From NCBI GenBank assembly GCA_011620345.1, contig WOZJ01000071.1, positions 3,037 through 67,036 on the forward strand: a stretch of DNA of 64,000 nucleotides. The letters run 5' to 3'. Origin of the DNA: Nitrospirota bacterium (GTDB lineage: Bacteria; UBA2233). Shown here piece after piece: positions 7,101 through 44,108 of this stretch. The notes beneath the pieces were generated by a model, which saw only the letters and a program-made list of their open reading frames with translations, was not told where the DNA came from and ran no database searches. The translations under genes and the position numbers were made by a program. Numbering within the stretch: position 1 is the first letter of the stretch; every line of letters starts with the position of its first letter.

Positions 7101-8697
7101 AAAGGTTCGGAATACAGTTCCGGGAATTACGCTCATATCCCCCCCGCCCCACCACGACATCTATTCGATCGAAGATTTAAAACAGCTTATCTACGACCTC
7201 CGCAATATCAACCCCAAGGCAACGATCAGCGTAAAGCTCGTCGCCGAGGCTGGCGTGGGTACGGTTGCGGCCGGGGTAGCCAAGGCCAAGGCAGATTTGA
7301 TCCTCATCAGCGGGTTCGAGGGAGGGACGGGCGCTTCGCCCTGGTCTTCGATCAAACATGCAGGAATTCCCTGGGAGATCGGGCTTGCCGAGACGCACCA
7401 GGTGCTCGTGATGAACGACCTGCGCTCGCGCGTTCGGTTGCAGACAGACGGCCAGCTAAAGACGGCCAAGGATGTGGTCGTGGCCGCGTTGTTGGGTGCC
7501 GAGGAGTTCGGGTTTGCCACGCTTCCTTTGATCACGCTCGGGTGCGTGATGATGCGCAAGTGCCACTTGGATACCTGCCCCGTTGGCGTAGCCACGCAGA
7601 ACGCCAAGCTGCGCGAAAAATTCACGGGAAAACCCGAGTACGTGGTGCGCTACTTTTTGTTCCTTGCCGAGGAGGTGAGGGTGCTCATGGCCGGCCTAGG
7701 GTTTCGGACGATGGACGAGATGGTAGGGCGAACGGATGTCCTTGAACCGGACCCAAGCCTGGCCCTTCATTGGAAGGCCAGCGGGATCGATCTCATGAAC
7801 ATCCTCTACAGGCCAATCGTACCCAAGCGAATCTCTATCCGCAAAACCAAGGCTCAGGATACGGAGCTCGAAACCGCCCTTGATCATAAGCTCATCGCAT
7901 TGGCCAGGCATTCGCTCGAGACGAAGAGCCCCGTTGTAATCGATATGCCCGTACGGAACGTCCATAGAACGGTCGGGACGATGCTGGGCGGCGAGGTTGT
8001 CCGGCGCTTTGGGCCCGAAGGCTTGCCAGAGGACACGATTCAGGTCCGTTTTGTGGGTACAGCTGGACAGAGCTTTGGGGCCTTCCTTCCCAAGGGAATG
8101 ACGCTCTTTTTGGAAGGCGATGCCAACGATTACCTAGGCAAGGGGCTTGGCGGGGGACGGATCGTGCTCTTTCCTCCGAAGCAATCGAGCCTTACGGCTG
8201 GCGAGAACATTATCGCGGGCAATGTGCTGCTGTACGGAGCGAGCGCGGGGGAGGTCTTCATTTCCGGCAAGGTCGGCGAACGGTTCGCGATCCGAAACAG
8301 CGGGGCCAGGGCCGTTGTCGAAGGGGTCGGGGATCACGCGTGTGAATACATGACAGGAGGGACTGTCGTCGTGCTCGGGGAAACCGGAAGGAACTTTGCG
8401 GCCGGGATGACAGGGGGGGTTGCCTACGTTTGGAGTCCGGCAGGCCTCGACAGGAGGCTGTTCAACGCGACAGATGTCGACCTAGAAAGGCTTGCGGTTG
8501 CGGATTGCGAGCTGATCGAGCTGCTCGAAAGGCATCGTCTCCATACGGGAAGCCCTCGTGTGGGCTACATTCTGGATAATCTCGATCAAGAACTGCCGCG
8601 CTTCATCAAGCTCGTGCCGCGTGAGTACGCGAAGGTTCTGGAAGGCAGGAAGAGAAAGGCCGCCGACCCGGAGGCTGTTTCGCTTTTGACGAGCTAA
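4138..8697 (+). CDS. gltB: Glutamate synthase large subunit
   Basis: N-terminal CGVGF, HQRYSTNT, NSGEGGED, QGAKPGEGGQLPG, CxxxRKCHxxxCPVG 3Fe-4S motif; start may be ATG 4150. Confidence 0.98.
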   Translation: MGLGMTQQFGLHDAGFERASCGVGFVVNIQGKRSHAIVEDGLRVLDNLMHRGATGADPNTGDGAGILLQIPDGFFREVLDAEGIALPSSRDYAVGVVFLPTRTSSRLLIEGLIERIAEEEGLEVLGWRDVPTNNKAIGEHALDVEPVIKQVFLRRGQAIQPGMAFERKLYVVRKRLECTVREMDAGDLSRFHVPSLSSRTIVYKGLLLAPQIAEYYPDLRDGRLESALALVHQRYSTNTFPTWDLAQPFRFLAHNGEINTIRGNRNWMHARESTLKSPLFGNDIQKLLPIVTPGGSDSASFDNVLELLVMAGRPLAHAVMMMIPEAWDQDPRMDDPKRAFYEFHAPLMEPWDGPAAIAFCDGELIGATLDRNGLRPARYLVTADGRVVLASEAGVLDISPDNVTLKGRLAPGKMLLIDTSQGRIVNDEELKAEIAGKAPYKERIKKKIVDLAAIAPKGASRPEEEWDERTLISHQLVFGYTLEDEKVVMGPMARTGTEPTGSMGNDTALSILSGKPKLLFTYFKQLFAQVTNPAIDPIREEVVMSLFGYLGRAGNLLDPEARTTRVLKLKTPILAHQDFEKVRYLDSEGLAATSLPTLFDVSRGGQGLQEALEELCETAKKRIRDGYNILVLSDRGVNASLAPIPSLLATGGLHHALVRSELRTQVGIVIESAEPREVAHFALLVGSGANAVYPYLAFELVRRMAREGKLADVGLTEEHSEKNYIKALNKGLLKVYSKMGISTHASYCGAQIFEAVGISKAVIDRYFTGTPSRVEGADLDIIAKETAVRHAMAFPETKRTLANLDDGGDYAYRRSGEFHMWNPKTITKLQEAVRNEDRVAFREFLQLADFAQDIQMVTLRSVMRFKDGRTRLPLEEVEPAESIVRRFVTSAMSFGSISKEAHESLAIAMNRLGSRSNSGEGGEDPERYKISSNGENRSSAVKQVASGRFGVTPEYLVNAKELQIKIAQGAKPGEGGQLPGYKVNEIIAKVRNTVPGITLISPPPHHDIYSIEDLKQLIYDLRNINPKATISVKLVAEAGVGTVAAGVAKAKADLILISGFEGGTGASPWSSIKHAGIPWEIGLAETHQVLVMNDLRSRVRLQTDGQLKTAKDVVVAALLGAEEFGFATLPLITLGCVMMRKCHLDTCPVGVATQNAKLREKFTGKPEYVVRYFLFLAEEVRVLMAGLGFRTMDEMVGRTDVLEPDPSLALHWKASGIDLMNILYRPIVPKRISIRKTKAQDTELETALDHKLIALARHSLETKSPVVIDMPVRNVHRTVGTMLGGEVVRRFGPEGLPEDTIQVRFVGTAGQSFGAFLPKGMTLFLEGDANDYLGKGLGGGRIVLFPPKQSSLTAGENIIAGNVLLYGASAGEVFISGKVGERFAIRNSGARAVVEGVGDHACEYMTGGTVVVLGETGRNFAAGMTGGVAYVWSPAGLDRRLFNATDVDLERLAVADCELIELLERHRLHTGSPRVGYILDNLDQELPRFIKLVPREYAKVLEGRKRKAADPEAVSLLTS

Positions 8698-29890: not shown

Positions 29891-30556
29891 TCAACGGTAG
29901 CGTTGGAAGCTCCATACTATCTTTCCGATGACGATGGGTCCCTCTTGGGAGGCGCCAAACAAAGGGAACGCGAAGGATGGGTAGCGCTCGTTGTCGCTTT
30001 GAAGCAGGAGCGTCCCCCCCTCCAGTAGGATGCAGCGCTTGATTACCGCGCCTTTCATCGGGAGCCAGAAGGCGAACAGCCGCTCGTGCTCCAGAAAGCC
30101 GCGCTTTGTGTCGATCCCGACGACGCTACCGTCCACGAGCGTCGGCTCCATCGAAGCGCCCCTGACGGCCATGGCGTAAATTCCGTCCTTTACGAGGCTT
30201 ACGGGTACGACGATTTCGCCCACAACGTCCGTGTGCGGGTCTATCGGCCCGCCTGCCGCGAGCGCCCCGTATACGGGTAGGCCGAGGTGTTCTTCGGCCG
30301 TTTTCGAGGCAAGCGCGGGCTCGAGGGCAAAGGAGCCCTTGAAGCTCGCCTGACCCTCCTGTTCAAGCCATGCCATGATGGCTGCAACAGAGGAGAAGCG
30401 TACGTCCCGCCCGTTTAAGAATGCCCGCAGAGTCCTTGGGTCTACATCGAGCCTTCTGGCAAGCTCCCCCAACCCCCGCCCCCCGGCCCTTTCGCAAAGC
30501 TTCCGGATGCGTTCCCTTAAGCCCCTAAGGTAGGCTTCTTTGTCATGCATGTTCAT
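29891..30556 (-). CDS. CI/LexA-like autocleavable repressor (XRE HTH + S24 peptidase)
   Basis: HTH LGELARRLDVDPRTL; Ala-Gly site in LAAGGP; GASM (Ser) and IKR (Lys); ATG 30556 after AAGGAGG. Confidence 0.88.
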   Translation of the reverse strand: MNMHDKEAYLRGLRERIRKLCERAGGRGLGELARRLDVDPRTLRAFLNGRDVRFSSVAAIMAWLEQEGQASFKGSFALEPALASKTAEEHLGLPVYGALAAGGPIDPHTDVVGEIVVPVSLVKDGIYAMAVRGASMEPTLVDGSVVGIDTKRGFLEHERLFAFWLPMKGAVIKRCILLEGGTLLLQSDNERYPSFAFPLFGASQEGPIVIGKIVWSFQRYR

Positions 30557-30580
30557 TGTCCCTCCTTGGTCAAGAAACCA

Positions 30581-30686
30581 TACCTTCCGGAATGGTACGT
30601 TTGATGCTTGACTTGGCAACATCATGTAGACTATATTTAGTCATATTTTCTATTATAGCAGCATAAAATGGAACTTACGGCAACAT
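30581..30686. promoter_or_regulatory. Divergent promoter/operator region between the repressor and the PolB2 cassette
   Basis: TTGACT (30608)-N18-TATATT (30632); palindrome GACTA-N4-TAGTC at 30629-30642; TACC-TTCCGGAA-T-GGTA at 30581-30597; AT-rich. Confidence 0.5.
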
Positions 30687-31166: not shown

Positions 31167-31332
31167 GCTCGTGCTCAAACGGCTCTTGGCCGGAGTGCGC
31201 GCGCATAGTCAAGCAATCGGCCTTTCTGATGTCGAGCCTTTTGAGGCCATCCTCCTTGCCATGCTCCTCGAGATCCAAAAAGAGGTCGAGGCCCTCAAGG
31301 AGGCTTTGGAGGGGGCAAAGAAGCACCCATGA
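31075..31332 (+). CDS. Small alpha-helical PolB2-associated protein (arCOG07300-like)
   Basis: MGRNVLPPS...FLRALRKEDR...PFEAILLAMLLE pattern; ATGA-coupled to polB2. Confidence 0.75.
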   Translation: MGRNVLPPSLLIAREEALLKDFLRALRKEDRLVLKRLLAGVRAHSQAIGLSDVEPFEAILLAMLLEIQKEVEALKEALEGAKKHP

Positions 31333-33518
31333 AGTCAGGGTTTCTACTGGATGCCCACGAAACCCCAAAGGGGATAGGTTTGTGGTTGGCGTTGGACGAT
31401 GGAAGCCGTCCGCGTTTAGAGCGCGCCTTTAGCCCTGGCTTTGCACTTGAAAACGAGGGGAGGAAGACAAGGCGCGCAGTGGCGATCCTCCAAGGGCGCT
31501 TCGGTAAGGATATTCGGGTGGTTGAGGGCAAGGGGAACGACCTTCTTAAGGGGGAGGTGCCCCTTTTTGAAATTAAGGCCAAAGACCCATGGACGTTCGA
31601 GCGCCTCAAAGCCCAAGCCCTCCGCTCGGACCTCTTTGAGGGGCTTTGTGTTTACGGGGTTGATACCCCCGCCGTCTCGCAGTTTTTTTTGAAGACGGGG
31701 ATGTTTCCGTTCTGCAGGTTCGCTTTCAAAGACGGAGAGTTAAGGGTTTGCGACGAGCCCTTGGCGCTCGATTACCCCTTTCCGTCCCTTAGGGTCTTGG
31801 AGGTTTCCTTGGAACCCGAAGGGCTTGACCCAATGCACGCAAGAAGGGCGTTTGCGCTGTGCCTTCGGCCCTTGGGAGAAGAAGAGGGCCTCGTGCTAGA
31901 GGCCTGCGACAAAGAGGGCATCGAAAGCTCCTTAAGGCGCTTCGACCCCGACGTGATCCTCGCCCCGTTTGGCGACGGTTACACGCTCAAGCGCCTCCTT
32001 GCGCTGGGTGTCCGCACGCTTTCCAGAGAAGGGTTTCACGCCCGTCTTGGCGAAGACCAAACCATCGCCTCGTACGGAAAGGTCTATGCAAGGAAGGGGC
32101 CCGTGCTCCTAAGCGGGCGTCTCCACATTGACCCCCGCAACTCGTTTTTCTACCCGGAAGTCGGGCTGGCTGGACTCATCGAACTCTCCAGGGCCTGCGC
32201 CATCCCTTTGCAAGAGCTTGCCAGGACAACCCCCGGCAGGGCCATTACCCGGCTCGAGGCCCGCTTGGCTGGCCAGCTCGGGTTTCTTGTCCCGTTTCAA
32301 AAGGGCGTCCCGGAGGGCTTTAAAACGCTCGAGACGTTCCTTAGGCTCGATAAAGGGGGCTTGAGCTTCAGGCCGCTCGTGGGGTTTTTTGAGAACGTGG
32401 CCGAGTACGATTTTGCCTCGATGTACCCGAGCATCATCGTGAACTTCAACCTCTCGTACGAGACGCTCAACTGCGGGCATCCTTCTTGTCAAACGCGGCT
32501 TCCGGTCTCAGGGTACGGCGTTTGCTCGAAGCGCACCGGGATCGTGCCCTTTACCTTGAAGCGCCTGATCGAAAGGCGGGAAACGCTCAAAGCGAGGGCG
32601 GCTTTGGAGAGCGATCCCCGCCAAAGACAAGCGCTCGAGCAAAGGCAAAAGGCCCTTAAATGGCTGCTTGTCGTGAGCTTTGGGTATCTTGGCTACAGGA
32701 ACGCAAAATTCGGCAGGATCGAGGCGCACGAGGCGACGACGGCCATAGGGCGGGAGCTTTTGCTTTTTGCCAAAGAAATCGCCGAAGCAAGGGGGTTCAA
32801 GCTTCTCCACGCGCTGACGGATGCGCTCTGGGTTCAAAAAGAGGGCGCCCAAGAGCGTGCATACGTGGAGCTCGAGCACGAAATCATACGGAGGGTCAAC
32901 GCCGCATTCAAGCCGGTGTTGCCAGACGGGGTTCCATGGAAGGTCCGGCTTGAAGGGGTATACGCTTGGGTTCGTTTTCTTGCCTCCAAGGCCTACGGGG
33001 TTGGCGTTGGGAACCGCTACGTGGGCGTGTTTCAGGATAGAACGATCAAAGCAAGGGGAATCCTCCTTAGGCGTTCGGATACTCCACCGCTTATCAGGGA
33101 GTTCCAGGAGCAAGCGCTCCAACTCCTTGCCGGGGTTTCTAGCATCGAAGGTCTCCGTCGGCAATATTCGACGCTTCAAGGGCTTACCAAGGCCTACGAG
33201 GCCCGCCTCGAAGAGGGGAAGGTCAGGCCGGAAGCGCTCGCTGTCCGCCTTCGGCTCGCAAGGAACCCCTTGGACTACCAAAAGCGTTCTTTTTTGGCTG
33301 AGGCCGCCCAAAGCCTTTTGGCCGAAGGTCTCGGGGTGTCATTGGGCGAGACGGTGCGTTTTGTCCGGGTTCAGGACAAAGCGCTGAGGGCGAACCCCCT
33401 TTGGCTTTACCATGACAACCCCAAGCCGATCGATACGGCCTACTATGCAGGGCTCCTTCAAGAGGCGCTGGAAGAGCTTCTCCCTCAATCGCTCCTTAAA
33501 GAAAAAGCGCTTCCTTGA
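31329..33518 (+). CDS. polB2: Family B DNA polymerase, PolB2 (Dpo2-like) subgroup, lacking proofreading motifs
   Basis: Motif A YDFASMYPSII; motif B KWLLVVSFGYLGYRNAKFGRIEAHE; motif C HALTDALWV instead of YGDTDS; KARGILLRRSD. Confidence 0.9.
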   Translation: MKSGFLLDAHETPKGIGLWLALDDGSRPRLERAFSPGFALENEGRKTRRAVAILQGRFGKDIRVVEGKGNDLLKGEVPLFEIKAKDPWTFERLKAQALRSDLFEGLCVYGVDTPAVSQFFLKTGMFPFCRFAFKDGELRVCDEPLALDYPFPSLRVLEVSLEPEGLDPMHARRAFALCLRPLGEEEGLVLEACDKEGIESSLRRFDPDVILAPFGDGYTLKRLLALGVRTLSREGFHARLGEDQTIASYGKVYARKGPVLLSGRLHIDPRNSFFYPEVGLAGLIELSRACAIPLQELARTTPGRAITRLEARLAGQLGFLVPFQKGVPEGFKTLETFLRLDKGGLSFRPLVGFFENVAEYDFASMYPSIIVNFNLSYETLNCGHPSCQTRLPVSGYGVCSKRTGIVPFTLKRLIERRETLKARAALESDPRQRQALEQRQKALKWLLVVSFGYLGYRNAKFGRIEAHEATTAIGRELLLFAKEIAEARGFKLLHALTDALWVQKEGAQERAYVELEHEIIRRVNAAFKPVLPDGVPWKVRLEGVYAWVRFLASKAYGVGVGNRYVGVFQDRTIKARGILLRRSDTPPLIREFQEQALQLLAGVSSIEGLRRQYSTLQGLTKAYEARLEEGKVRPEALAVRLRLARNPLDYQKRSFLAEAAQSLLAEGLGVSLGETVRFVRVQDKALRANPLWLYHDNPKPIDTAYYAGLLQEALEELLPQSLLKEKALP

Positions 33519-35370
33519 CCGCGAAACAACGGGCTCTATGGCCGTCTTGGAGCGTGACCCATGGGGCCGGCTCGTCCTTGCAGTAAGGCCTTGCAACGGG
33601 ACAGCGAGGGGTGAACGCGCAGCCTTTGGGGAGCGTATACGGGTCGGGGGGGCTTCCTGGAAGCGCAAGGAGGGCAGTATCCGGGTCGTCCGCGTCGGGT
33701 TTTGGGATCGAATCGAGCAGCCCTTTTGTGTAGGGATGCTGGGGGTCTTGGAACAAGCGCGTCGATGGGCCCTCTTCGACAATCTCGCCCGCATACAGCA
33801 CAGAGACTCTGTCAGCCCAGCCCTTGGCAAGCGCGAAGTTGTGCGTGATGAACAAGATGCCTAGCCCGCGCGTTGTCTTGAGCTTGGTAAGGAGCGCGAG
33901 GATCCTAGCTTGCGTGGCAACATCGAGCGCCGTCGTGGGTTCGTCGGCGATCAAGAGGCTTGGCGAGAGCGCGAGCATGACGGCGAACACGACCCTTTGT
34001 CGCATGCCCCCCGAGAGCTCGTGAGGGTAAGCGAAAAAGCAGCGCCTCTGATTTTGGATGCCAACTTCCTTAAAAAGATGGAGCGCTTCCTCCTTGGCCG
34101 CAGCCCAAGAAAGCATCCTGGCGGCAACAAGCGCCTCTGCCACCTGTTTTCCGGCCTGCATCGTCGGGTTGAGCGACCCTAAAGGGTTCTGGAAAACCAT
34201 GGCCAGCTTAGGCTTGCCCAGCTGATCGAGGGGCCCAAGCCTTGGCAGTCGGAGCTCTTGGCCCATGAACAGGCACTTGCCAGAAACCAGCGAGCCTTTC
34301 TTTGGCAGGAGTCCCATAATGGACCTTCCTAGCGTTGACTTGCCAGAGCCCGACTCTCCCACGAGCGCGAGCATTTCGCCGGATTGAAGCGTAAGGCTAA
34401 CCTCTCTGATCGCAGGAAGCTCTCCCCTTGGCGTAAGGAACCTAACACAGGCTCGCTCGAGCGTTAGAAGCGGCGCTCCGACAGTTTTCTCTGGAGGGAG
34501 CGCGGGAATTTCGGCGCTACCCTTGACCAACGGCCTTGGTGCTGGCTCTCCCCTTTTTGGGTCCAGCAGGTCCCTTAGGGTATCGCCCAAGGTGTTGAAG
34601 GCAAGGAGCGTCGAACAGAGAATGGTCGCAGGGATGAAGAGCTGCCAGGGGTAGTACCAAGATTCCCGCGCTCCCTCCGTGATCAGCGTGCCCAGGCTGG
34701 CCCTAGGCAGTGGCACGCCAAGGCCGATGAAGGCAAGGAACGCCTCCAAGAATACGGCCTGGGGGATGGTGAGCGTCAAGGCCACCAGTACGGGACTCAT
34801 AACGTTGGGAAGGATGTGCCACAGGAGAATCCGGAACGGCCCCTGGCCCATAGCGGTCGCGGCAAGGACGAAGTCCTCTTCTTTTGCCCTCAAAACCTCG
34901 CCCCGCACGAGCCTGGCCATCGGGATCCAGCCCGTAAGCGTCATTCCAACTATGAGCGAGAAAACCCCAGGACCTAGGATTACTGCAAGCAAAAGGACCA
35001 CCATAATATAGGGGATGCTGTAGAGAACCTCTACCGCACGCATGAAAGTCGTGTCCAATTTCCCCCCGATGTATCCCGCGAGCCCGCCCAGCATCAGGCC
35101 AAGCCCCAAATCGATCAGCGCGGCCGCAAACCCGACGAACAAAGAGATCCTAGCTCCACCCCATGCCCTTATAAACAGGTCCCTTCCGAGCGCGTCCGTT
35201 CCGAACGGGTGGGCCAAGCCGGGAGGGAGGTTGGTTTGGGCAAGGTCGATCTCGTAGGGCGAAAAGGGGCTGAGCCAAGGCCCTAGCATGGCAAGCGTTA
35301 GAATGCCAATCAAAAAAAGAAGGCTTGCAAGGAGCAAGGGGCTGGCTTTCAGCGTTCGAGAGCCGGCCAT
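33496..35370 (-). CDS. oppCD: Fused oligopeptide ABC permease OppC + ATPase OppD
   Basis: HPFGTDALGRD and EAA-like loop, then GESGSGKST, LSGGMRQR, DEPTTALD, HPYT, C-terminal Cys cluster in one frame. Confidence 0.9.
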   Translation of the reverse strand: MAGSRTLKASPLLLASLLFLIGILTLAMLGPWLSPFSPYEIDLAQTNLPPGLAHPFGTDALGRDLFIRAWGGARISLFVGFAAALIDLGLGLMLGGLAGYIGGKLDTTFMRAVEVLYSIPYIMVVLLLAVILGPGVFSLIVGMTLTGWIPMARLVRGEVLRAKEEDFVLAATAMGQGPFRILLWHILPNVMSPVLVALTLTIPQAVFLEAFLAFIGLGVPLPRASLGTLITEGARESWYYPWQLFIPATILCSTLLAFNTLGDTLRDLLDPKRGEPAPRPLVKGSAEIPALPPEKTVGAPLLTLERACVRFLTPRGELPAIREVSLTLQSGEMLALVGESGSGKSTLGRSIMGLLPKKGSLVSGKCLFMGQELRLPRLGPLDQLGKPKLAMVFQNPLGSLNPTMQAGKQVAEALVAARMLSWAAAKEEALHLFKEVGIQNQRRCFFAYPHELSGGMRQRVVFAVMLALSPSLLIADEPTTALDVATQARILALLTKLKTTRGLGILFITHNFALAKGWADRVSVLYAGEIVEEGPSTRLFQDPQHPYTKGLLDSIPKPDADDPDTALLALPGSPPDPYTLPKGCAFTPRCPVARPYCKDEPAPWVTLQDGHRARCFAVKEALFL

Positions 35371-36342
35371 TCAGCGCTCCTTTGCTCCGAAGGTGCGGAT
35401 CCTTGGGTCTAAAAGGCCGTAGGCGATGTCGACCAAGAACATCGCGACGATCAGGAGCGCTGCGTAGAATACAGTCGTTCCCATGACGAGCGTGTAATCT
35501 CTGTCGTAGATGCTCTGGACGTAATATTTCCCTAGGCCCGGCACGTTGAAGATCGTCTCGATCACGAACGAACCGGTCGTGATGTTCACCACCATCGGCC
35601 CTAGGTAGGTTACGACGCTCAAGGCGGCGTTCCGAAGGATGTGATGCACCAGGAGTCTGGTATGCGCAAGCCCTTTGATCCTGGCCGTCTGGATGTAGTC
35701 TTGCCTTAGCACGTCCAAGATGCTCGCACGAAGGAGGCGAGCAATCGTCGCGGCAGGAAGGATGCTTAGCGTTAAGGCTGGCAAGAATCTTGCTGTTCCT
35801 CCCTCCCAGCCTGCGACGGGGAAAAGGCCAAGCCGAAATGCGAAAACGTACTGAAAAAGCAAAGCCAAAATGAACGATGGCACCGAAACGCCAAGGGCGG
35901 CCAAAAAGGTCGCGGATCGATCGATCTTTCCTTCATGGTACAGTCCAGCAAGCGCGCCCAAGAGCGTGCCCCAAAAAAGGGCCAGGAGCAAAGCCCAAAG
36001 CCCAAGCTCTGCCGATACAGGGAAGCCTTGAGCGATGATGTCGTTTACCGAACGGCCGAGCTGGACGTAAGAAACGCCGAAGTCGAGCCTTGAGAGGTTG
36101 CCCAGGTACCGAAAGTACTGCTTATAGAGCGGCTTATCGAGCCCATACTTGCGGTAGAGGTTCTCCCTGACCTGGGGGGTGACCTTGGGGTCCGCGAACG
36201 GGTCCCCTGGAATCAGACGCATGCCAAGGAACGTGAACGTTGCGACGACCCAAAGCGTGGTGAGCATCATGATGACACGTCCGAACAGGCGCCAAAGAGG
36301 GCCTTTGCCTTGCAGCCTCACTCCGCTTTGTGCAGGCCTCAT
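35371..36342 (-). CDS. oppB: Oligopeptide ABC permease
   Basis: IPGDP, YGLDKP, DFGVS, DYIQTARIKGL, ETIFNVPGLG, DPRIR; ATG 36342 is ATGA-coupled to the oppA stop. Confidence 0.93.
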   Translation of the reverse strand: MRPAQSGVRLQGKGPLWRLFGRVIMMLTTLWVVATFTFLGMRLIPGDPFADPKVTPQVRENLYRKYGLDKPLYKQYFRYLGNLSRLDFGVSYVQLGRSVNDIIAQGFPVSAELGLWALLLALFWGTLLGALAGLYHEGKIDRSATFLAALGVSVPSFILALLFQYVFAFRLGLFPVAGWEGGTARFLPALTLSILPAATIARLLRASILDVLRQDYIQTARIKGLAHTRLLVHHILRNAALSVVTYLGPMVVNITTGSFVIETIFNVPGLGKYYVQSIYDRDYTLVMGTTVFYAALLIVAMFLVDIAYGLLDPRIRTFGAKER

Positions 36343-37964
36343 GGTTGGAGGCTTGCCCATTTGAGAGGCCCGTCGGCTCCGCACGCCAAGAACACGACAC
36401 CCTTGAGATAGGGCGGCACGAGCGCGTAGGAGAGCCTGTAGAACACGGGAACAACCGGGCTTTCTTGCATTAGCAATTTTTCTGCGTGGACAAAGAGCGT
36501 CATGCGCTCGGCTTGATCTGAGCTCCGGCGCGCTTTTTCGATGAGCGCATCGTAGGCGGGATTCGAAAAGCCCGGGTCGTTGAACGGCGAGCCTGTCGTG
36601 AACAGGTCGAGAAACGTCATTGGATCGTCGTAATCTGCCCCCCAAAGCACGTTGGCCGCATCGTAATCCTTCGTTGCCACGCGCGCCAAACGGGTTTGAT
36701 AGGTGACGGGATCGAGGCTGACCTTGACCCCTAAGTGTTTTTGCCAGAAGAACTGGAGCACCTGCCCAAGCCTTCTTGCTTGAGGGGTATCGTCGATTAA
36801 AAGAGAGAACGTGAGCTCCTTTTGCCCTGATTCTTTGAGCCCTTCTTGGAACAGCGCCTTTGCTTCCTCGATACTTCTATCCTCGAACCAAACGCTCGTT
36901 TTGTACGGCCTGCTGGTCAATGGGTCGTAAAACACCCTGAAGCGTTCCCCAAAATGCGCTCGAAACGAGCGTCCTGGCCCGTCTCCCGAGATCGTCGGCG
37001 GGACAAACCCGTAGGCCGGGAGCGATTGCCGGTCAACGTTGGCACAGTAAGCCTGCCTGTCCAGAACAAGGCTCAACGCCTTGCGTATCTTTGGGTTTTG
37101 AAAGGCCTTGAGGTCTGGACGGTGCAAATTGAATACGATGTAGTCGGTAACGGCCTCAGGCCTGGGCTTGAGCCAAGGGTTTCCTGCGTAGCGGGGCAAA
37201 TGGACGGTAGGAACCTGGTAGATCAGGCTCAACGCACCCGTGTCGTACATCTGGACGAGCGTGTTCGGATCCTTGACGACGACGAACTCAGCCCCCTTTA
37301 AAAGCACGGCTTCTTTGTCCCAGTATCGCAGGTTTTTTTCCAACACGACCTTCGAGCCCTTCTTCCAGGCTGCGACGACAAAGGGCCCGTTGAACACGGT
37401 TCGCTCTGGGCTCGTCCCGTAGCTTTGGCCTAACGCTTCGAGCAAGTCCTGTCTAAGCGGCAAATATGCGGGGAAGGCCGTAAGCCAAAGAAAATAGGGC
37501 GTAGGCCGCTTTAGTAGGATCCTGAGTGTTCGCTCGCCTAGAACATCGACACGCTCCACCGTGTCGGTGACGATATAGGCGTACTGGGCGGCCGTTTTAG
37601 GGTCCATCACACGCCCTAAGGCGAAGGCGAAATCTTTCGCCATGACTGGAACGCCGTCGCTCCAAAGGGCATTTCTTAAAAAAAACGTGTAGGAGCGCTT
37701 GTCTTTCGAGACTTCGATCTTACTTGCAATCCCTGGAACGATCCGGCCGCCCGGCCCGACCCTGGTTAGCCCTTCGTAGATGTTCGTAAGCACCCGGAAC
37801 GTAACGGAATCCGTGGATAGCCCAGGGTCGAGGATGCGAATGTCGTCCCCTATCTCCGAAATGAGGACGCCTGGCCTGGGGGCTTCTGGTTGCGGTCCTC
37901 CATGACACCCAAAAAAAGGGGCCGAAAGAAGCAACCAGAACCAAGCCTTGGCACCAAAACGCAT
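36339..37964 (-). CDS. oppA: Oligopeptide ABC substrate-binding lipoprotein
   Basis: Lipobox-like FFGC, LDP, YEGL, WSDG, NGPF, WGADYDDPMTFL; ATG 37964 after AGGAAGG. Confidence 0.92.
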   Translation of the reverse strand: MRFGAKAWFWLLLSAPFFGCHGGPQPEAPRPGVLISEIGDDIRILDPGLSTDSVTFRVLTNIYEGLTRVGPGGRIVPGIASKIEVSKDKRSYTFFLRNALWSDGVPVMAKDFAFALGRVMDPKTAAQYAYIVTDTVERVDVLGERTLRILLKRPTPYFLWLTAFPAYLPLRQDLLEALGQSYGTSPERTVFNGPFVVAAWKKGSKVVLEKNLRYWDKEAVLLKGAEFVVVKDPNTLVQMYDTGALSLIYQVPTVHLPRYAGNPWLKPRPEAVTDYIVFNLHRPDLKAFQNPKIRKALSLVLDRQAYCANVDRQSLPAYGFVPPTISGDGPGRSFRAHFGERFRVFYDPLTSRPYKTSVWFEDRSIEEAKALFQEGLKESGQKELTFSLLIDDTPQARRLGQVLQFFWQKHLGVKVSLDPVTYQTRLARVATKDYDAANVLWGADYDDPMTFLDLFTTGSPFNDPGFSNPAYDALIEKARRSSDQAERMTLFVHAEKLLMQESPVVPVFYRLSYALVPPYLKGVVFLACGADGPLKWASLQP

Positions 37965-38082
37965 CGCTTGCCTTCCTAAAAGGAGGTATGTAACAATAGG
38001 CAACGAATATAACCAGCACAAGGGATGAAGCGCTTTGAGAACAGCACCCATTCCGACTAGAAATACCTTGATCCATGGGATA

Positions 38083-39537
38083 ATGTACCCTGTCGTCCTC
38101 CTGTGCGCAATCGTCTTGGTTCAAGCCCAAGCTTCTGCCCGCTCGTTTTACGAGCAAGGCTATCGCATGGCGAAGACGCTCTCTCCGGCGTATTCCACGC
38201 TCGCTTCCCAGCTCAAGGAGGAGGCGGAACCGGATGCATGGAGCAGGGCGATTGCAATGGCCCGGCGCCACGAAGCGACGCTTGCCCGTTACTTCCCAGA
38301 GCAGCTCGAAAGGCTAAGGGGCATGTCCACGGCTATCGGCACAAATCCAACGGAGACGATCGCCCTTTCGATGTTCTTGAACCGCGGACAGCAGTGTGCC
38401 CAGGGGGCGAGCGCCCCTCCGGCCACGAAAGACGGCCAGGTGTACTTGACATGGAACTTCGAGACGCTCACGGCAGCAAGGCCTTTATTCATCCTGCCTC
38501 TCTTTTCGATCGTCGAAAACCAAGAAGGCTATAAGTTTTGCTTTCTTGGCTTGCCGTATTTCTTCGGTGTTCCCTTGATGAACGAGAAGGGCCTTTCGCT
38601 GTCGGCCGCCTCGATGACGATAAACGAGGACGGGGAGGGCCTTACGCCCTTCGAGCTGGCCGTTTTGGTAATGGAAAGGGCCGCAAACGTGGATGAGGCC
38701 GTGGAGATTTCCAAAGCGATGCCCCGATACTCGACCTCTGACATCTACTGGGGCAACTGGATGAACTGGAGCTTCACCCTGGCCGATGCCCAGGAGAACG
38801 TGGCGACTATCGAGATGACAACCACGCTTTTCGAGGAGGTTCGCCCGAAAAACAAGATCGTTGCGCGTGCCAACCACTACGACTACCTGCCAGACGAGAT
38901 GACAACCTGTTATCCCCTGGCCCCGCAGTATTCCAAAGGCGAGGCCTCGGCCTGCTTCGGCTCAAGGATGCGGGCCTCGAGGATGTGGAGGCTTTTGGAG
39001 GACAACTACGGGAACATCGACTTGGAACTGGTCAAGACATTCCCCGCGGACACTAAAGGCGGGGAGCCGTTCATGGGCAGGCCCTCGGGCACATGGTGGA
39101 CGATCGAGCGGCACAGCCACACGTTGCCACGCGACCAGTCCGTCTGGAACGACGTCCCCTACAACCCCCAGGTCGATATAGATTACGTCATCGAGCAGTT
39201 CAACCTCGTCTACGAGCCCAAGCGGCGAGTGCTTTGGTGGTCTTCTGGCCATGCCTCCAGGGGGTACTTCACCCCGATATTTCTTGCCCCATGGTTTGGC
39301 GTGGAGGGCCCAACGATCGAGACCTACCAAGGACCCCAGAAGAACTACGCAAGGGTGCTGAACAGCTGGGTGAAGGTTTCAGACGAGTTTTTTGGGCTTG
39401 CGGAAGTTGTGCTTGGGCTTGGGGCCAGGACAGCCCAGCTTTTCGGGTATACGGCCGGCATTGAACCTAACGAGGGCTCGGTTGCATTGGGTGCCTTTAG
39501 GCCCTATGGAACCGAAACGCCAAGTGTTGCAGAATAA
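38083..39537 (+). CDS. Secreted C45-family (AAT / Ntn-hydrolase) autoproteolytic acyltransferase/amidase, paralogue 1
   Basis: Signal peptide; YEQG..ERLRGM pro-segment; QQCAQ...ATKDGQVYLTWNFE; MNEKGL; ARANHY; SRMRxxR. Confidence 0.8.
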   Translation: MYPVVLLCAIVLVQAQASARSFYEQGYRMAKTLSPAYSTLASQLKEEAEPDAWSRAIAMARRHEATLARYFPEQLERLRGMSTAIGTNPTETIALSMFLNRGQQCAQGASAPPATKDGQVYLTWNFETLTAARPLFILPLFSIVENQEGYKFCFLGLPYFFGVPLMNEKGLSLSAASMTINEDGEGLTPFELAVLVMERAANVDEAVEISKAMPRYSTSDIYWGNWMNWSFTLADAQENVATIEMTTTLFEEVRPKNKIVARANHYDYLPDEMTTCYPLAPQYSKGEASACFGSRMRASRMWRLLEDNYGNIDLELVKTFPADTKGGEPFMGRPSGTWWTIERHSHTLPRDQSVWNDVPYNPQVDIDYVIEQFNLVYEPKRRVLWWSSGHASRGYFTPIFLAPWFGVEGPTIETYQGPQKNYARVLNSWVKVSDEFFGLAEVVLGLGARTAQLFGYTAGIEPNEGSVALGAFRPYGTETPSVAE

Positions 39538-39550
39538 AAAAAGGGGGAGC

Positions 39551-40987
39551 ATGTACAGTATGCGGTTAATTTGCCGATACGGATGTTTTGCGGTGGGTCT
39601 GATTCTTGCCCTGGCGCACACAGGAAACGCCACCCCTTTCTTTGAAGAGGGTGTCACGCTAGGAAGGAGCTTCAAAGAGGCTTACCGTTCGTTCGCTGAA
39701 GATGCCAAGGCGTCGGGCTTAAACGAGCAGGCCTCGGCGCTTAGCCAGGGGCATATTCAAGACCTTGCCAGCTACTACCCGGAATACCTAGAAAGGCTTG
39801 AGGGTATTTCGGAGTCCTCCGGGGTTCCGACCGAAGATCTCGTAAAGGCCAGTTTCGTCTTGGCGTTAGGTCCAAAGTGTGCCCAGTCGGGTGCCGCCCC
39901 GCCCGCCACGAACGACGGCCAGGTGTATCTTTCCTGGAACTTCGAGTCCGCGCTTTTGGCCAGGCCGATCTTTTCGATTCCATTCTTTAGCGTGCTCGAG
40001 CCAAAAAACGGCTACAAGACGTTCTTTTGGGGCATTCCTTACCTGATCGGCGTCGCGATCATGAACGAAAAGGGGCTATCGCTCGCCGCCTCTGCCATGA
40101 ACTACGACGACGACGGGACGGGGCTTACCTCGTTCGAGCTTGCCAGCATGGCGATGGAGCGCTGCGCCACGATTCCCGAAGTGACCGAACTTTTGGGCTC
40201 GGTACCTCGGTTTTCCACCTCCGACCCAACATTCGGGGCGTCGATCAACTGGACGTTTTCGATGGCGGACGAGCAGGGTAACGTGGCCATGATAGAGTTC
40301 ACTCACAGCTATTTAAAGTGGGACTACGGCGAAAATGGGATTGTCGGGAGAGCCAACACCTACCAGCTCCTGCCTTTAGAGAAGACGACCTGCATATCAA
40401 CGTCGAAGTACTTCACGCCAGACATGGCGCTCGCTTGCTGGGGGGCGGATATGCGGGCCCTTAGGATGTGGGAATTGGTACGCACAAACTACGGCAACAT
40501 TGACCTGGAAGCGATGAAGCGTTTCACTGCGGACACAAACGGGGGAACGGATTTCCTTGGCAGGCCCGCCGGCTCTTGGTGGACGCCGGAGCGTCATGGC
40601 CAGACCTTGCCCGAGGACCTTGCCCGTTTCCAGGGCACGCCCTACATACCGATCATTATGGACTTCGGCTACGTGATTACCCATACGGTGTTCATCTACG
40701 AGCCCAAAAGAAAGATTATCTGGTGGACGCCAGGACATACCTCGAGAATCGGGCATATCCCCCTCTTCGCAGGTGAGCTGATGGGGGTCCAGGGAGCCGC
40801 CAGGATCGAGGATTACCAAGGACCGGCCCGCAACGCGGCTAGGGTCGTCCACTCTTTTTCCGGTGTGGCCCAAGCGTTGGGCGGCTCGATCGGGTTGATT
40901 GCAGGGCAGTTCTTCCAGGCAATCAACGGCAGGGATGTTTCGCCCGGCTATCCTGGCCTTTACTCGACCCAATTGGGGAGCCAGTAA
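39551..40987 (+). CDS. Secreted C45-family (AAT / Ntn-hydrolase) protein, paralogue 2
   Basis: Signal peptide; PKCAQ...ATNDGQVYLSWNFE; MNEKGL; colinear with the upstream paralogue; ATG 39551 after GGGGGAG. Confidence 0.8.
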   Translation: MYSMRLICRYGCFAVGLILALAHTGNATPFFEEGVTLGRSFKEAYRSFAEDAKASGLNEQASALSQGHIQDLASYYPEYLERLEGISESSGVPTEDLVKASFVLALGPKCAQSGAAPPATNDGQVYLSWNFESALLARPIFSIPFFSVLEPKNGYKTFFWGIPYLIGVAIMNEKGLSLAASAMNYDDDGTGLTSFELASMAMERCATIPEVTELLGSVPRFSTSDPTFGASINWTFSMADEQGNVAMIEFTHSYLKWDYGENGIVGRANTYQLLPLEKTTCISTSKYFTPDMALACWGADMRALRMWELVRTNYGNIDLEAMKRFTADTNGGTDFLGRPAGSWWTPERHGQTLPEDLARFQGTPYIPIIMDFGYVITHTVFIYEPKRKIIWWTPGHTSRIGHIPLFAGELMGVQGAARIEDYQGPARNAARVVHSFSGVAQALGGSIGLIAGQFFQAINGRDVSPGYPGLYSTQLGSQ

Positions 40988-40991
40988 CGGG

Positions 40992-41522
40992 TTGGAATAT
41001 CTAAGGCCCGCACGGTACGCGGACCTTGAGCTTTTGGCGCGCACCGGACGCGAAGACCCGGTGCGCGCCTTTTTCCTTGATTTTCGGGGCGATCTGGACC
41101 CTGCCCCTTTTTCGCGCCTCCGCGGAGCGTTTAGGGAAGAGCTTTTAAAGGGCAGCTCAAGCAGGCTGCTGGTTGTTCGAGCCGCATCTTCTCCGCTCCC
41201 AGAGGCCTTCGTGTTGGTTAGCTTTTTTGAGGGAATCGAAGGGGACTGCTTTCTAAAGGCCTTGCCTTGCATGGAGAACCTCGAAACCAAAGCCCTGCTA
41301 GACGGGCTAAAAGAGCTTTTAAATTATATTTTTCTATCAAGAAACCGCCACCGGGCCATGGCTCAATTCCTGGGCTGCGAAGAGCCCTTGCTTGGGCTGT
41401 TTGAGAAGCTAGGCTTTATTCAAGAGGGCAGAAGGCGCGAGGAGGTGTACGCCCGAGGGCGATTTTACGACGTCATCCCTCTTAGCATGACACAAAGCCG
41501 CTTTCTTGCTCAAAATTCATGA
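40992..41522 (+). CDS. RimJ/RimL-like GNAT-fold protein, divergent
   Basis: N-terminal YLRPARYADL; C-terminal FEKLGFIQEGRRREEVYARGRFYDV; TTG start just after the upstream stop. Confidence 0.7.
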   Translation: MEYLRPARYADLELLARTGREDPVRAFFLDFRGDLDPAPFSRLRGAFREELLKGSSSRLLVVRAASSPLPEAFVLVSFFEGIEGDCFLKALPCMENLETKALLDGLKELLNYIFLSRNRHRAMAQFLGCEEPLLGLFEKLGFIQEGRRREEVYARGRFYDVIPLSMTQSRFLAQNS

Positions 41523-42091
41523 GAACCGGAAAATTCGTCCTACTTCGAAAGCCAGAAGAGGATGACCTCGATTTCCTTCTGGCCGTCTTCCAGGATCCAG
41601 ACTATCGCCGCTTTATCGGAGGCGACCCCTTGGAGAGAGAAAAGCGGCTCAAGGACCAAATCCTCCGTGCGGCCCAGGGGCTTTTTTCTTACGATGCAAA
41701 CCTTTATGCGATCGTTTGCCGACTGAAAGACGGCCGCAGGGTTGGCTGCATATTTTTCAACAAGGTCTCCTGGCGAAACCGTAACGCGACGCTAGACGTG
41801 TTCTTTCTAAAGGAAGAACGCGCCACGATGGCCGTCATGGACGCCTACGTGGCGGCCATCGAATACGCATTTTTGGACTTGGGCCTCCATAAGGTGATCG
41901 GCTACGTCTACGCGTTCAACGAAAGGCTCGTCAAGATCCACAAAAAGCTGGGGATTCAGATCGAGCAGCGGCTGATCGAGCACGTCTACCGGGACGGGCG
42001 CTACCACGATGTCCTGGCCTTCGGGATGCTCGAGCCGGAGTTTCGTGAGCTTACGAAAAAGCCCTTCTACAAGTTCCTGCGCGGCGGATAA
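41519..42091 (+). CDS. RimJ/SpeG/PseH-like GNAT-fold protein
   Basis: VLLRKPEEDDL, SWRNRNA, YAFLDLGLHKV, FNER, HKKLG, DGRYHDV. Confidence 0.85.
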   Translation: MRTGKFVLLRKPEEDDLDFLLAVFQDPDYRRFIGGDPLEREKRLKDQILRAAQGLFSYDANLYAIVCRLKDGRRVGCIFFNKVSWRNRNATLDVFFLKEERATMAVMDAYVAAIEYAFLDLGLHKVIGYVYAFNERLVKIHKKLGIQIEQRLIEHVYRDGRYHDVLAFGMLEPEFRELTKKPFYKFLRGG

Positions 42092-43680
42092 TGGCCTACG
42101 AGGACCTCTACGTGTTTACGGTTGAGGAAGAACCCTTCGCGTTTCATACGAAAACGGCCTTCCTCGTGCAGCTGGACGCTCCGACGGCGAGGTTTTTAAA
42201 CCTTCGAGGTGACGCGAGTGCCTTCTTAGAAGAATTCCCCGGGCAGGTCTTGAACGAGTGCATGGGGGCACTCTCCGGTCTATACGAAGACGACCTTCTC
42301 CCAAAAGAGCTGGAGATTGAAGAGCGCAAGAGCCCTAAAAACCCCCGTTGGGTGCTGGATCTAGCGTCCATCCAAGACCCGCTCTTCGTGCTCGGTGCCA
42401 CCTTGAAGGCGACTGCCGCCTTAAGCCCAAGCCAAAGCGCCCCGCTTGTTGTTGGAATGAGCGCAAAAGAGAGGATCGCCTCTTATCCATCTAAGACCCC
42501 TGGCGTAGTTTTTGGTGTCCATGAGACAGAAGGAGTGTTTCGGTTTCCCTCGGGTTCAAACCCGATGGATGCCGTATTGTGTCTGGAAACATTCGAGCCT
42601 GCACTTATCCAGAGACTGTTTCGCGAGGGTACTGGTAGAGTCTGGTTGGATTGGGGGGGATGGATTCCAAGCCCCCCAAAAGGGCTCTTTGATGCCCTCG
42701 TTTCCCTTATGGGCTCTGTCTGGGAAGAAAACCCCAAAGCCATACTCGAGCCTTTATCCTCTTGGATCCGAGCCATGTACGAGGCCGTCCCCCCAGTTCA
42801 CCCCCCCTGGATAGGGGTCTTGCTGCCAGGCCAGGATAAATCCTTGAGCCTCAAGGCCTCGCCTCGCGCCCCCGAATCGACGTTTGTCAGTCTGCAAGAT
42901 GTCTTAGCCCTCTTAGGAGAGTCGGATACCTGCAAGCCCGTATGCAGGGCCTGCCCGATCCTAAAGCTTTGCCAAGGGGGGCATTGGGCGCCACGGCTGA
43001 AGAATGCGCAAGCCGGGTATCAAATCTCCCCTCCCGATCCAAAAGAGTGCGCCATTGCCTTCGATGTGTTCCGCGCCGCCGTCGCCCTGTACGACCGGCT
43101 AGAACGCGAAGGGCTTTTGGAAATCCAGGCAGGAGACGCGCCAACCAAGAAGATGGAACGTTTCGCCTGGGGGACGCACGCTCTAAGTGCTCGCTTAATC
43201 ACAGAAGAATCCTTCACCGAAGTGAGTCCTTTCCTTAAAAAAGCCTTTGACGACGGGATTTTCCTGGTTGAGCGATTTTTAGACCCCTCATGGAGAGAGG
43301 TTCAAAGGCTCCTTCAAGAAGATGAACCGAGGCGCAGGCTCGTTGTGCTAAGGAGCGGCGAGGGGGAGCCTTGCGGGTTTTTATGGGTTGCGGCGCTTGA
43401 GCAGGATTATAGGGCCGATGCATCGCTATGGCTCTCTGAGCACGCCTACGGGGTGCTTACGCCTTCTGTCCTAAAGGACTTCCTACGGGCGTTACTCAGG
43501 GACCTTGGCATAAGAAAGCTTAGCTTGTACGCCTTGACGGGGCATGCTAGGCTTGAAAGGTTGCTCGAGAACGCCGGAGCGGTACATGAAGGGGTGCTCC
43601 GTGAAGCCGCGTTTCTCGAAGGCGGCTTCCGGGACGTTGCCGTTTACGCATGCCTCGAGAAAAAACTTGTAACAAAGTAG
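42091..43680 (+). CDS. Fusion: RRE-like N-terminus + degenerate radical-SAM core + SPASM remnant + C-terminal GNAT
   Basis: N-terminus resembles QhpD/CteB RRE; no CxxxCxxC; CRACPILKLCQGGH-x21-C; C-terminal LGIRKL...GAVHEGVLRE...GGFRDV. Confidence 0.65.
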   Translation: MAYEDLYVFTVEEEPFAFHTKTAFLVQLDAPTARFLNLRGDASAFLEEFPGQVLNECMGALSGLYEDDLLPKELEIEERKSPKNPRWVLDLASIQDPLFVLGATLKATAALSPSQSAPLVVGMSAKERIASYPSKTPGVVFGVHETEGVFRFPSGSNPMDAVLCLETFEPALIQRLFREGTGRVWLDWGGWIPSPPKGLFDALVSLMGSVWEENPKAILEPLSSWIRAMYEAVPPVHPPWIGVLLPGQDKSLSLKASPRAPESTFVSLQDVLALLGESDTCKPVCRACPILKLCQGGHWAPRLKNAQAGYQISPPDPKECAIAFDVFRAAVALYDRLEREGLLEIQAGDAPTKKMERFAWGTHALSARLITEESFTEVSPFLKKAFDDGIFLVERFLDPSWREVQRLLQEDEPRRRLVVLRSGEGEPCGFLWVAALEQDYRADASLWLSEHAYGVLTPSVLKDFLRALLRDLGIRKLSLYALTGHARLERLLENAGAVHEGVLREAAFLEGGFRDVAVYACLEKKLVTK

Positions 43681-44108
43681 CGTGTACAGTGCATTACAGG
43701 AAAGAAGAGCTTAAGTTTGCCGATAACGAGCAGCGGGTCGTCGCGGTTCATGAGCATCTCGTGGGCCTTGTGACGCAAGCGAGAAAAGCCCTGGAAAACA
43801 AAGAGCCACAAAGGCTCAAGAAGCTCCTCGATGCCGCGATGGATGCAGTGGCGACTCTCGACATGCACCTGGATTTCCGGTCAAATCCGGCGTTTGCTGC
43901 TGCGATCCGTCGCTGGTACGCGTTTTGGACGCTTTGCATGATGGATGCACGCCAGGCGGAGGGCGAAAGCACAGCGGCCACCTTGCAAGAGCTCGAAGAT
44001 TCTCTGAAGGAGTTCGTTCTCTCGCTTCGTGACGGCATGGTGCTTCGCAACGCTCCCGTCCCAGAGCAAAAAGGCTCGCAAAAAGGCGGTGTGTCGTTTA
44101 ACGCCTAG
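43650..44108 (+). CDS. fliS: FliS-like flagellin chaperone, orphan and divergent
   Basis: Four-helix pattern ARKALE...AMDAVATLDMHLDF...AAAIRRWYAF matches FliS A.dIi.eL...Ld....A.nL..LY.y; start may be GTG 43689. Confidence 0.6.
   Translation: MPREKTCNKVACTVHYRKEELKFADNEQRVVAVHEHLVGLVTQARKALENKEPQRLKKLLDAAMDAVATLDMHLDFRSNPAFAAAIRRWYAFWTLCMMDARQAEGESTAATLQELEDSLKEFVLSLRDGMVLRNAPVPEQKGSQKGGVSFNA

Follow-up and report, generated by a model that had tools for sequence, protein, structure and literature searches.

This study investigated a gene at positions 42,091 to 43,680 of a 64,000-nucleotide stretch of DNA from a Nitrospirota bacterium (GenBank assembly GCA_011620345.1, contig WOZJ01000071.1, positions 3,037 to 67,036 of the forward strand); the whole of this stretch was analyzed and is called the window. 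The gene encodes a 529-residue protein, referred to as the target, that is probably a catalytically dead descendant of a CteB/SCIFF-type peptide maturase and holds ribosomal peptides for modification by GNAT-fold domains. The basis of this reading was observed in homology, in fold, in the pattern of lost and retained cysteines, in the gene neighbourhood and in conservation. The architecture, consisting of an RRE, a barrel and SPASM remnant and a GNAT, is very probable. The gene and its parts, in amino acids (aa), were assigned as follows.

42091..43680, plus strand: degenerate radical-SAM/SPASM maturase scaffold fused to a GNAT; 529 aa, the whole open reading frame (ORF).
42091..42315, plus strand, aa 1-75: RRE-like peptide-docking domain, three strands followed by helices (structure model, CteB alignment and sequence identity).
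42316..42810, plus strand, aa 76-240: radical-SAM partial TIM barrel, reduced to a shortened remnant (model with alternating strands and helices, predicted local distance difference test (pLDDT) 55-93).
42349..42378, plus strand, aa 87-96: WVLDLASIQD, strand beta1 and a six-residue cysteine-free loop at the site of CxxxCxxC (sequence, model and alignment).
42811..43125, plus strand, aa 241-345: SPASM remnant, a beta-hairpin (243-246 and 252-255) and helices (alignment with the SPASM region of a sister family).
42943..43050, plus strand: C285, C288, C294 and C320, ligands of the auxiliary cluster II (Aux II) type, with H298 at the position of the auxiliary cluster I (Aux I) 'GGC' cysteine (alignments).
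43186..43677, plus strand, aa 366-529: GNAT-C, a GNAT fold of the RimJ/RimL/SpeG type (sequence, profile and fold matches).

The 529-aa frame was uninterrupted across 42091-43680 of the plus strand in the ORF translation, and the N-terminal string quoted in an earlier note on this DNA, which had proposed a pseudo-radical-SAM protein fused to a GNAT, corresponded to target residues 7-64. In the Pfam scan, PF04055 was not matched by the target; the SPASM model TIGR04085 was matched neither by the target nor by its homologues P0005 and P0006, and the target was also unmatched by the equivalog models for SCIFF (TIGR03974) and QhpD (TIGR03906) maturases. The target does not have the features that define the radical-SAM, SPASM (seven cysteines) and SCIFF-maturase families and was not assigned to them. 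The PDB sequences matched by phmmer were GNATs only (target aa 424-524; 1nsl, E 7.7e-4), and the RimL model gave a weak match (E 0.009). The fusion to a GNAT was clear by profile, with an E value of 3.4e-9 for the window-family profile against SpeG over GNAT-C, and also by fold, although the single target sequence scored only 14.5 bits against PF13302 (aa 400-497), below the gathering cut-off of 25.4.

A word-index search with the target returned six relatives of 98-43% identity, and an exhaustive phmmer search with target aa 1-380 against 1.84 billion representatives returned four, which were exclusively fused forms of 526-541 aa together with one 402-aa fragment. The resulting window family spans identities from 98% to approximately 30%, with 52 invariant columns among 8 sequences, and all of the homologues found have an open frame. 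A search for loci carrying relatives of the target yielded one genome locus and one locus on a 6-kb metagenome contig (L008). Among 41 genomes searched, the gene was present in the genome of the window and in its one same-genus relative; the same search revealed a weak match (E 6.8e-4, target aa 283-522) to a 643-aa ORF of an unrelated genome, G037.

The G037 protein (locus L004) provided the bridge to characterized maturases. Its residues 7-437 aligned with residues 6-445 of CteB (PDB 5wgg) at E 5.4e-23 in phmmer, and it matched the SCIFF, QhpD, nif11 and PapB maturase models at E values from 1e-15 to 1e-23, all of them far under the cut-offs (80.9 vs 425 for SCIFF and 70.9 vs 453 for QhpD). 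It passed the SPASM model TIGR04085 with 34.9 bits vs 27. At least 197 public proteins of approximately 640 aa are homologous to it and all share the fusion of scaffold and GNAT; those that carry a name are annotated as 'SPASM domain-containing protein' of Candidatus Hydrogenedentes, and we refer to them as the sister family. When the window family (8 sequences) was compared with 30 sister sequences in hhalign, the two aligned with a probability of 97.7 and an E value of 2.1e-12 over 337 columns, and window aa 172-525 ran against sister residues 265-643 in a register that brought the cysteine motifs, the linker and the GNAT all into line. The two proteins are approximately 20% identical, and the window protein is approximately 110 residues shorter, with large deletions. 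An Atlas feature search with P0003, a protein 88% identical to the target, likewise placed Hydrogenedentota clusters on top (0.97 and 0.95). The third match in that search, offered as a lead only, was a Bacillota cluster of 465-aa proteins with Radical_SAM, Fer4_12 and Acetyltransf_1 domains (score 0.80), which may represent an active radical-SAM/GNAT fusion.

The earlier note had read C-x2-C-x5-C-x3-H-x21-C at 42943-43050 and WVLDLASIQD at the site where the cluster motif is expected, and both were present exactly so, the former as C285-x2-C288-x5-C294-x3-H298-x21-C320. PMC6231123 gives the seven-cysteine SPASM motif as CX9-15GX4C-gap-CX2CX5CX3C-gap-C, lists Cys255, 261, 276 and 330 as the Aux I ligands of anSME, and describes CteB as composed of RRE, radical-SAM and SPASM modules with a fully ligated Aux II. 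Of the seven SPASM cysteines, the target has the CX2CX5C...C set only; the two upstream cysteines and the CX3C cysteine are replaced. We take Cys330 of anSME to be the last cysteine of CX2CX5CX3C, in which case the first three and the distal cysteine bind Aux II. In the alignment of CteB with the G037 protein, the cluster loop 'HDCNLRCKYC' fell opposite a cysteine-free stretch, 'FFGGEP' with its SAM-binding GGE fell opposite 'FVESEG', and the cysteines of 'CGSG', 'YPC' and 'GGC' fell opposite P, S and N, respectively; the CxxCx5C set of CteB and the cysteine that follows it were kept. The target carries residues other than cysteine at the same three Aux I positions.

We then examined a joint alignment of 126 sequences, comprising 8 from the window family and 118 from Hydrogenedentota. 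C285, C288, C294 and C320 were cysteine in 8/8 members of the window family and in 126/126 sequences of both families, and they account for four of only nine invariant columns. A CxxxCxxC motif near beta1 was found in 0/126. The predictions that the canonical cluster motif is missing, that the Aux I cysteines are gone and that the Aux II ligands remain conserved among homologues were thus all borne out. None of the 126 sequences keeps the motif, and the protein is conserved across two phylum-level lineages; the loss is patterned, as had been proposed, and selected, and is not the outcome of decay. The proposed replacement of the 'GGC' cysteine by histidine stood for the target itself, which has H298, but not as a conserved substitute ligand: position 298 is H in 6, Y in 1 and F in 1 of the window family (n=8), and the commonest residues among the 118 Hydrogenedentota sequences are T (40), S (17), N (16), A (12), C (12) and R (9).

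A literal CxxxCxxC does occur in the target at aa 281-288 (42931-42954), where an extra cysteine, C281, precedes C285 and C288 inside the SPASM remnant. If C281-x3-C285-x2-C288 or similar non-canonical ligands held a cluster, the target could still be a radical-SAM enzyme. We consider this hardly credible: C281 is not conserved, the string is limited to 4/126 sequences (the target and its three closest homologues), and it does not follow beta1, where the loop is six residues long and contains no cysteine. The replaced GGE region of the sister protein and the missing PF04055 match point the same way. The C281-derived string could mislead motif-based annotation. Weak matches between the window-family profile and MutY/endonuclease III at aa 279-321 (42925-43053; E 0.0045 to 0.78) were attributed to the shared CxxCx5C spacing of their [4Fe-4S] loop and were not taken as homology.

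Structure prediction was consistent with a maturase scaffold. AlphaFold gave a pLDDT of 47.1 with seven sequences and, with the 126-row alignment, a pLDDT of 76.7 and a predicted template modelling score (pTM) of 0.64, with 86-97 over the N-terminal 60 residues. The model places RRE-like strands at 6-11, 14-19 and 25-27 and helices at 30-37, 42-46 and 51-78 (pLDDT 83-97 over aa 1-70), a predicted RRE-type topology at the N-terminus of a maturase-like scaffold. It then continues with a strand at 87-90, six residues, and a helix at 97-111; because this helix starts six residues after the strand, the cluster loop has been deleted. In a fold search independent of Foldseek, CteB (5wgg_A) ranked third, with Z 13.9 and a root-mean-square deviation of 4.8 over 303 residues, model residues 4-338 lying against chain residues 2-450, and the cyclopropyl synthase TigE (8vpo_A) matched with Z 12.5 over 311 residues. 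These matches agree with the RRE-like N-terminus of the CteB/QhpD type and with the partial TIM barrel and SPASM that the earlier note had suggested looking for by structure prediction; the predicted barrel fold is retained in a shortened form. GNAT structures matched the model over aa 352-527 (2fck_A, Z 14.4; RimL 1s7f_A, Z 14.2 over aa 352-523; 1nsl_A, Z 13.8). Foldseek against the PDB returned GNAT matches only (E 4e-9) and was uninformative on the N-terminal part. The model is not independent of the sequence argument, because it was built on the alignment with the sister family.

The RRE-like region (aa 1-75) is the best conserved part of the target, with 76%, 73% and 51% identity to P0005, P0006 and P0007, respectively; against the same proteins, identity falls to 20-42% in the barrel remnant, the SPASM remnant and the GNAT and to 15-30% in the short linker. 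A relic in decay would be expected to show the reverse of this bias, which points to a conserved binding partner. We weighed the possibility that the gene is a decaying pseudogene or relic without function alongside these figures. The lack of a hidden Markov model (HMM) match to the parent families and the loss of approximately 110 residues relative to the sister family would fit such decay; the open frames in all homologues, the 52 invariant columns (n=8), the four cysteines in 126/126 sequences, the 51-76% identity of the RRE and the conserved synteny already contradict it, and we give it almost no credence.

Peptide docking was modelled for the sister family. For aa 1-460 of the G037 protein and its proximal peptide, a small ORF product described below, modelled on alignments of 30 and 9 rows, respectively, the complex reached an interface score (ipSAE) of 0.77 (0.63, 0.77 and 0.77 in the individual runs), and the best of three controls reached 0.00. 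The mark applied to this score is reached by 116/157 solved complexes and 2/215 mismatched pairs, counts that are rough, since the author's own alignments were used. The runs shared at least 66% of contacts, with a partner pLDDT of at least 50, and in the predicted interface residues 1-12 of the peptide contact strand 25-31 and helix 61-77 of the G037 RRE. The pass may reflect likeness to the solved CteB-CteA complex; it supports peptide binding in the sister family. The joint alignment maps this interface to window aa 23-29 (AFLVQLD) and 53-70. The first stretch does not vary in a seven-sequence alignment (A1) without P0007, which has L25 changed to C and L28 changed to V; within 53-70, E56, C57, A60, L61 and L64 are invariant in A1, and C57 is present in 7/7 window-family sequences that cover its column. 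Leader binding by the RRE is thus a prediction for the sister protein only. The earlier suggestion of a substrate-binding scaffold gained indirect support from the conservation of the RRE and from the sister complex, but delivery to an active GNAT, its second half, is weakened by the lack of a recognisable CoA loop in that domain. A CxCxxC motif (C25, C27 and C30) on strand beta3 of the RRE is invariant in the Hydrogenedentota family and absent from the window family; a metal site shared by these three cysteines and His3 of the leader is conceivable.

The genes upstream of the target, and a second locus of the same genome, resemble parts of a conserved gene cassette in Hydrogenedentota.

40899..41522, plus strand: GNAT-A, a divergent GNAT-like protein (RimJ model, E 9.7e-4 over aa 129-203); the true start is probably downstream of 40899.
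41519..42091, plus strand: GNAT-B, a stand-alone paralogue of 190 aa (PF13302), overlapping GNAT-A at its start and the target at its end.
Contig C24 of the window genome, 4271-7266 (G000:C24; 1272-4267 of locus L044), outside the window: small ORFs with CPBP, ABC and ABC-2 genes.

In G037, the cassette runs GNAT-A, GNAT-B, CPBP (Rce1-like) membrane protease, ABC ATPase, ABC-2 permease and scaffold-GNAT fusion. This six-gene order was found in 13/13 Hydrogenedentota loci examined, namely G037 and 12 further loci that were picked for long contigs and a spread of similarity, not at random. The sister protein occurs in 75/81 genomes sampled from the phylum, including 66/68 of high quality, and in 46/50 genera. 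GNAT-B of the window passes PF13302 (58.3 bits, E 1.7e-15), found four relatives when used as a search query, and is orthologous to GNAT-B of the cassette (32% identity, E 2e-31). In tblastn, it matched the GNAT-B position in 13/13 loci, and GNAT-A of the window matched the first GNAT in 3/13 (E 3e-10, 1e-9 and 3e-6).

Between one and five small ORFs of 38-64 aa lie upstream of GNAT-A in 12/13 loci (in G037, an array at L005:15007-15656). Their products start with MKH[ILVM]xx[ILVM][ST] and have variable, mostly helical bodies; a regular-expression search over the 13 loci yielded 30 such MKH ORFs, with none in L040, and a conserved proximal type was present in 11/13. No NCBIfam model matched the MKH peptides.

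The CPBP protease, the ABC ATPase and the ABC-2 permease are absent from the window locus. In tblastn, they were located in cassette order on contig C24 of the same genome, at 4815-5453, 5454-6449 and 6442-7266, respectively. Among more than 25 ABC ATPase matches, the C24 ATPase ranked first (E 5e-68 vs 3e-41 for the next), and in the reverse search the cassette ATPase came first in 3/3 Hydrogenedentota genomes (E 1e-69 to 1e-73 vs 3e-43 or weaker for the next); all three C24 genes rank as reciprocal-best orthologues of their counterparts in the export half of the cassette. An 858-base gap upstream of the C24 CPBP gene holds three tandem small ORFs of 47, 52 and 52 aa (4271-4414, 4446-4604 and 4635-4793), which are rich in Gly, Pro and Ala, the middle one with a GGAGG site. 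Compared with the same-genus genome, ORF 1 is kept with in-frame indels of 9 and 3 bases, and ORFs 2 and 3 show synonymous to non-synonymous ratios of 5:6 and 4:3, better than in the other frames. By position, these ORFs are the best substrate candidates for the window system, an assignment that we hold tentatively and regard as possible though doubtful. The C24 intergenic region gave no Rfam match, and promoter and terminator scans remained at chance level. In the same-genus genome (L045/L046, G001:C54), the first 135 bases of a 1,601-base C24 query (approximately 3899-5499, beginning far upstream of the small ORFs and ending in the first part of the ABC ATPase gene) match approximately 10.7 kb away from the rest, which therefore indicates an insertion or rearrangement upstream of the small ORFs.

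On this evidence, the history and working of the system could be as follows. A CteB/SCIFF-type maturase would have lost its radical-SAM cluster loop and Aux I ligands, and the retained N-terminal RRE would dock the leader of a small peptide. The shrunken barrel and the half SPASM would be held by the four-cysteine site, most likely as a structural [4Fe-4S] cluster of the Aux II type. The fusion protein, together with GNAT-A and GNAT-B, would present peptides for N-acylation or a related GNAT-fold reaction, with processing and export of the products then falling to the CPBP membrane protease and the ABC-2 exporter. Taking peptide docking and acyl transfer jointly, we lean towards this mechanism; its metal content, the binding of peptides by the window copy, the identity of those peptides and the GNAT chemistry are parts that we infer.

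Several observations weigh against the reading of the target as a dead maturase that holds peptides for GNATs. In Pfam and NCBIfam HMM scans, the target matched no radical-SAM, SPASM or RRE family, and its link to CteB runs through the intermediate family and through a model from an alignment in which 118/126 rows come from that family. The N-terminal parts alone (1-64 vs 3-72) are co-linear but weakly similar (E 0.019; hhalign probability 2.4 for 180 vs 275 residues). The four cysteines could hold zinc as readily as an Fe-S cluster, and nothing in this analysis separates the two. The near-universality of the cassette in a phylum is odd for a secondary-metabolite pathway. An MKH-type peptide was not found in the window genome, where a six-frame regular-expression search gave one match that was judged to be chance and where HMMs of the leader and of the proximal peptide reached best E values of 0.098 and 2.6. 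The C24 ORFs are unlike the helical Hydrogenedentota peptides, and the evidence for them amounts to 7-11 differing codons each in a single sister genome.

The GNAT domains themselves belong among these points. GNAT motif A, Q/R-x-x-G-x-G/A, forms the loop that binds the pyrophosphate of coenzyme A (CoA). By eye, in HMMER alignments, the SpeG CoA loop 'QGKGFA' pairs with residues other than glycine in the fused GNAT and with 'RATMAV' in GNAT-B, and no glycine-rich loop was visible in GNAT-A. The Tyr of SpeG 'LYEECGF', the general acid, aligns with Leu in the fused domain and with His in GNAT-B, again by eye. Acyl transfer may not occur, or may use another donor. Because the CoA loop and the Tyr positions are degenerate, catalysis by the GNAT domains of the window is something we can only infer.

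These degenerate motifs feed the main rival explanation, according to which the whole module is non-enzymatic, its GNATs as dead as its radical-SAM scaffold, with the protein serving as an escort, immunity or chaperone factor by which peptides are bound or silenced until export. That the binding domain, and not the GNAT, is the most conserved part would also suit such a role. However, three GNAT modules are kept in both lineages at 23-40% identity and with invariant positions, which would be hard to explain if they had no separate function. R-K-G-F, kept in the sister family, fits part of the SpeG loop (consensus, by eye), and the pyrophosphate loop binds through backbone amides, so that a degenerate motif is no proof of lost binding. 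We consider the non-enzymatic explanation rather unlikely. A more far-reaching version of the preferred reading, that of a peptide-holding dead maturase serving GNATs, is a quite unlikely one: an ancient and new ribosomal-peptide pathway in which the maturase has become a leader-docking hub for three GNAT modules, with the Aux II-type cluster as a redox or oxygen switch that gates modification and export, and in which the window pathway has been split and retargeted to the Gly/Pro-rich peptides encoded beside its exporter.

Other genes near the target were considered as part of its context.

43650..44108, plus strand: FliS-family protein directly downstream of the target (PF02561, 37.8 bits vs 26.7); its membership in the system is uncertain.
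38035..40987, plus strand: two secreted C45 Ntn-hydrolase paralogues (38035-39537 and 39392-40987; NF040521, 99.3 and 81.8 bits) with signal-peptide-like N-termini; context only.

If its first ATG is used, the FliS gene overlaps the target stop by 31 bases. It is the sole FliS match in the genome and lies away from the flagellin-family loci, which are on contigs C7 and C26. The 6-kb metagenome contig L008, whose homologue is 29-37% identical to the target, has the same gene order as the window: C45, GNAT-A (184 aa), GNAT-B, target, FliS-like, metallo-beta-lactamase (MBL; opposite strand) and topA. The shared order may be mere lineage synteny, because topA is also syntenic.

This neighbourhood raises the possibility that the substrate is a flagellar protein or a nucleotide sugar, as in flagellin modification, with FliS as chaperone and GNAT-B as a PseH-like sugar N-acetyltransferase. 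The only FliS gene of the genome directly follows the target, an order kept in the distant L008; the best NCBIfam match of GNAT-B is PseH, at E 1.1e-9 and far under the cut-off; and the genome contains flagellin-family genes. Yet MBL and topA share the synteny in L008, so the adjacency of FliS may come from lineage synteny, and FliS is in no cassette among 13/13 Hydrogenedentota loci. Flagellins occur in 5/5 Hydrogenedentota genomes far from the cassette (approximately 200 kb away in G056). The RRE is a peptide-leader fold, and there are no sugar-pathway genes nearby. We regard a flagellar or sugar substrate as very unlikely.

The closest known counterparts of the target are the CteB/SCIFF ranthipeptide (sactipeptide-like) maturases (PDB 5WGG), which share the module order of RRE, partial TIM barrel and SPASM, and whose RRE-plus-scaffold portion the target most resembles in its presumed working. 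The Aux II cysteine set is kept, and the sister leader is predicted to lie as a strand on the RRE in the way that CteA lies on CteB (PMC6231123). Unlike CteB, the target has neither CxxxCxxC nor the Aux I ligands, GGE is lost in the sister, the barrel is shortened by approximately 110 residues and a GNAT is fused; unlike SCIFF systems, no cysteine-rich SCIFF-type precursor adjoins the target. The Hydrogenedentota cassette has the same fusion, linker, four cysteines and upstream GNAT-A and GNAT-B, and its export genes have orthologues elsewhere in the window genome, whereas the window system is split over two contigs and has C45 hydrolases and FliS as neighbours. Elp3 naturally combines a radical-SAM domain with a GNAT/KAT domain at its C-terminus (PMC12323606). 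It differs in having an active Fe-S/SAM site and no RRE or SPASM, and in acting on tRNA (U34 modification), and the target GNAT is of the RimJ/SpeG type; among the fold matches listed for the target model it had no entry, and a resemblance is still possible. Among RRE-fused or RRE-dependent RiPP tailoring GNATs, an iterative lasso-peptide acetyltransferase (PDB 9iy3) offers a GNAT that acts on ribosomal peptides, and 9iy3_A matched the target C-terminus with Z 13.3 over 161 residues; it is a stand-alone GNAT with CoA bound, whereas the target GNAT is fused to a dead scaffold and is without the usual CoA loop.

Neither a SPASM-only or dead maturase with a fused GNAT nor the associated pathway turned up in a full-text literature search. 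Almost the whole of one uncultured phylum has that pathway, and a second deep lineage has it too, there with a smaller protein, a split cassette and other candidate peptides. Radical-SAM/SPASM maturases rank among the main routes by which peptides are modified. A lineage that had dispensed with radical chemistry yet kept leader docking and one auxiliary site would show how such scaffolds can be reused as adaptors, and, if a cluster is present, would provide a natural single-cluster SPASM protein for the study of Aux II alone.

The C45 hydrolase genes are flanked by GNAT-A and, on the other side, by genes for an oligopeptide ABC importer of divergent sequence (33496-38051, minus strand); their products could deacylate or process peptides outside the cytoplasm. 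Farther upstream, a gene for a LexA-like S24 peptidase (29891-30625, minus strand) has a family-B DNA polymerase gene close by (31329-33518).

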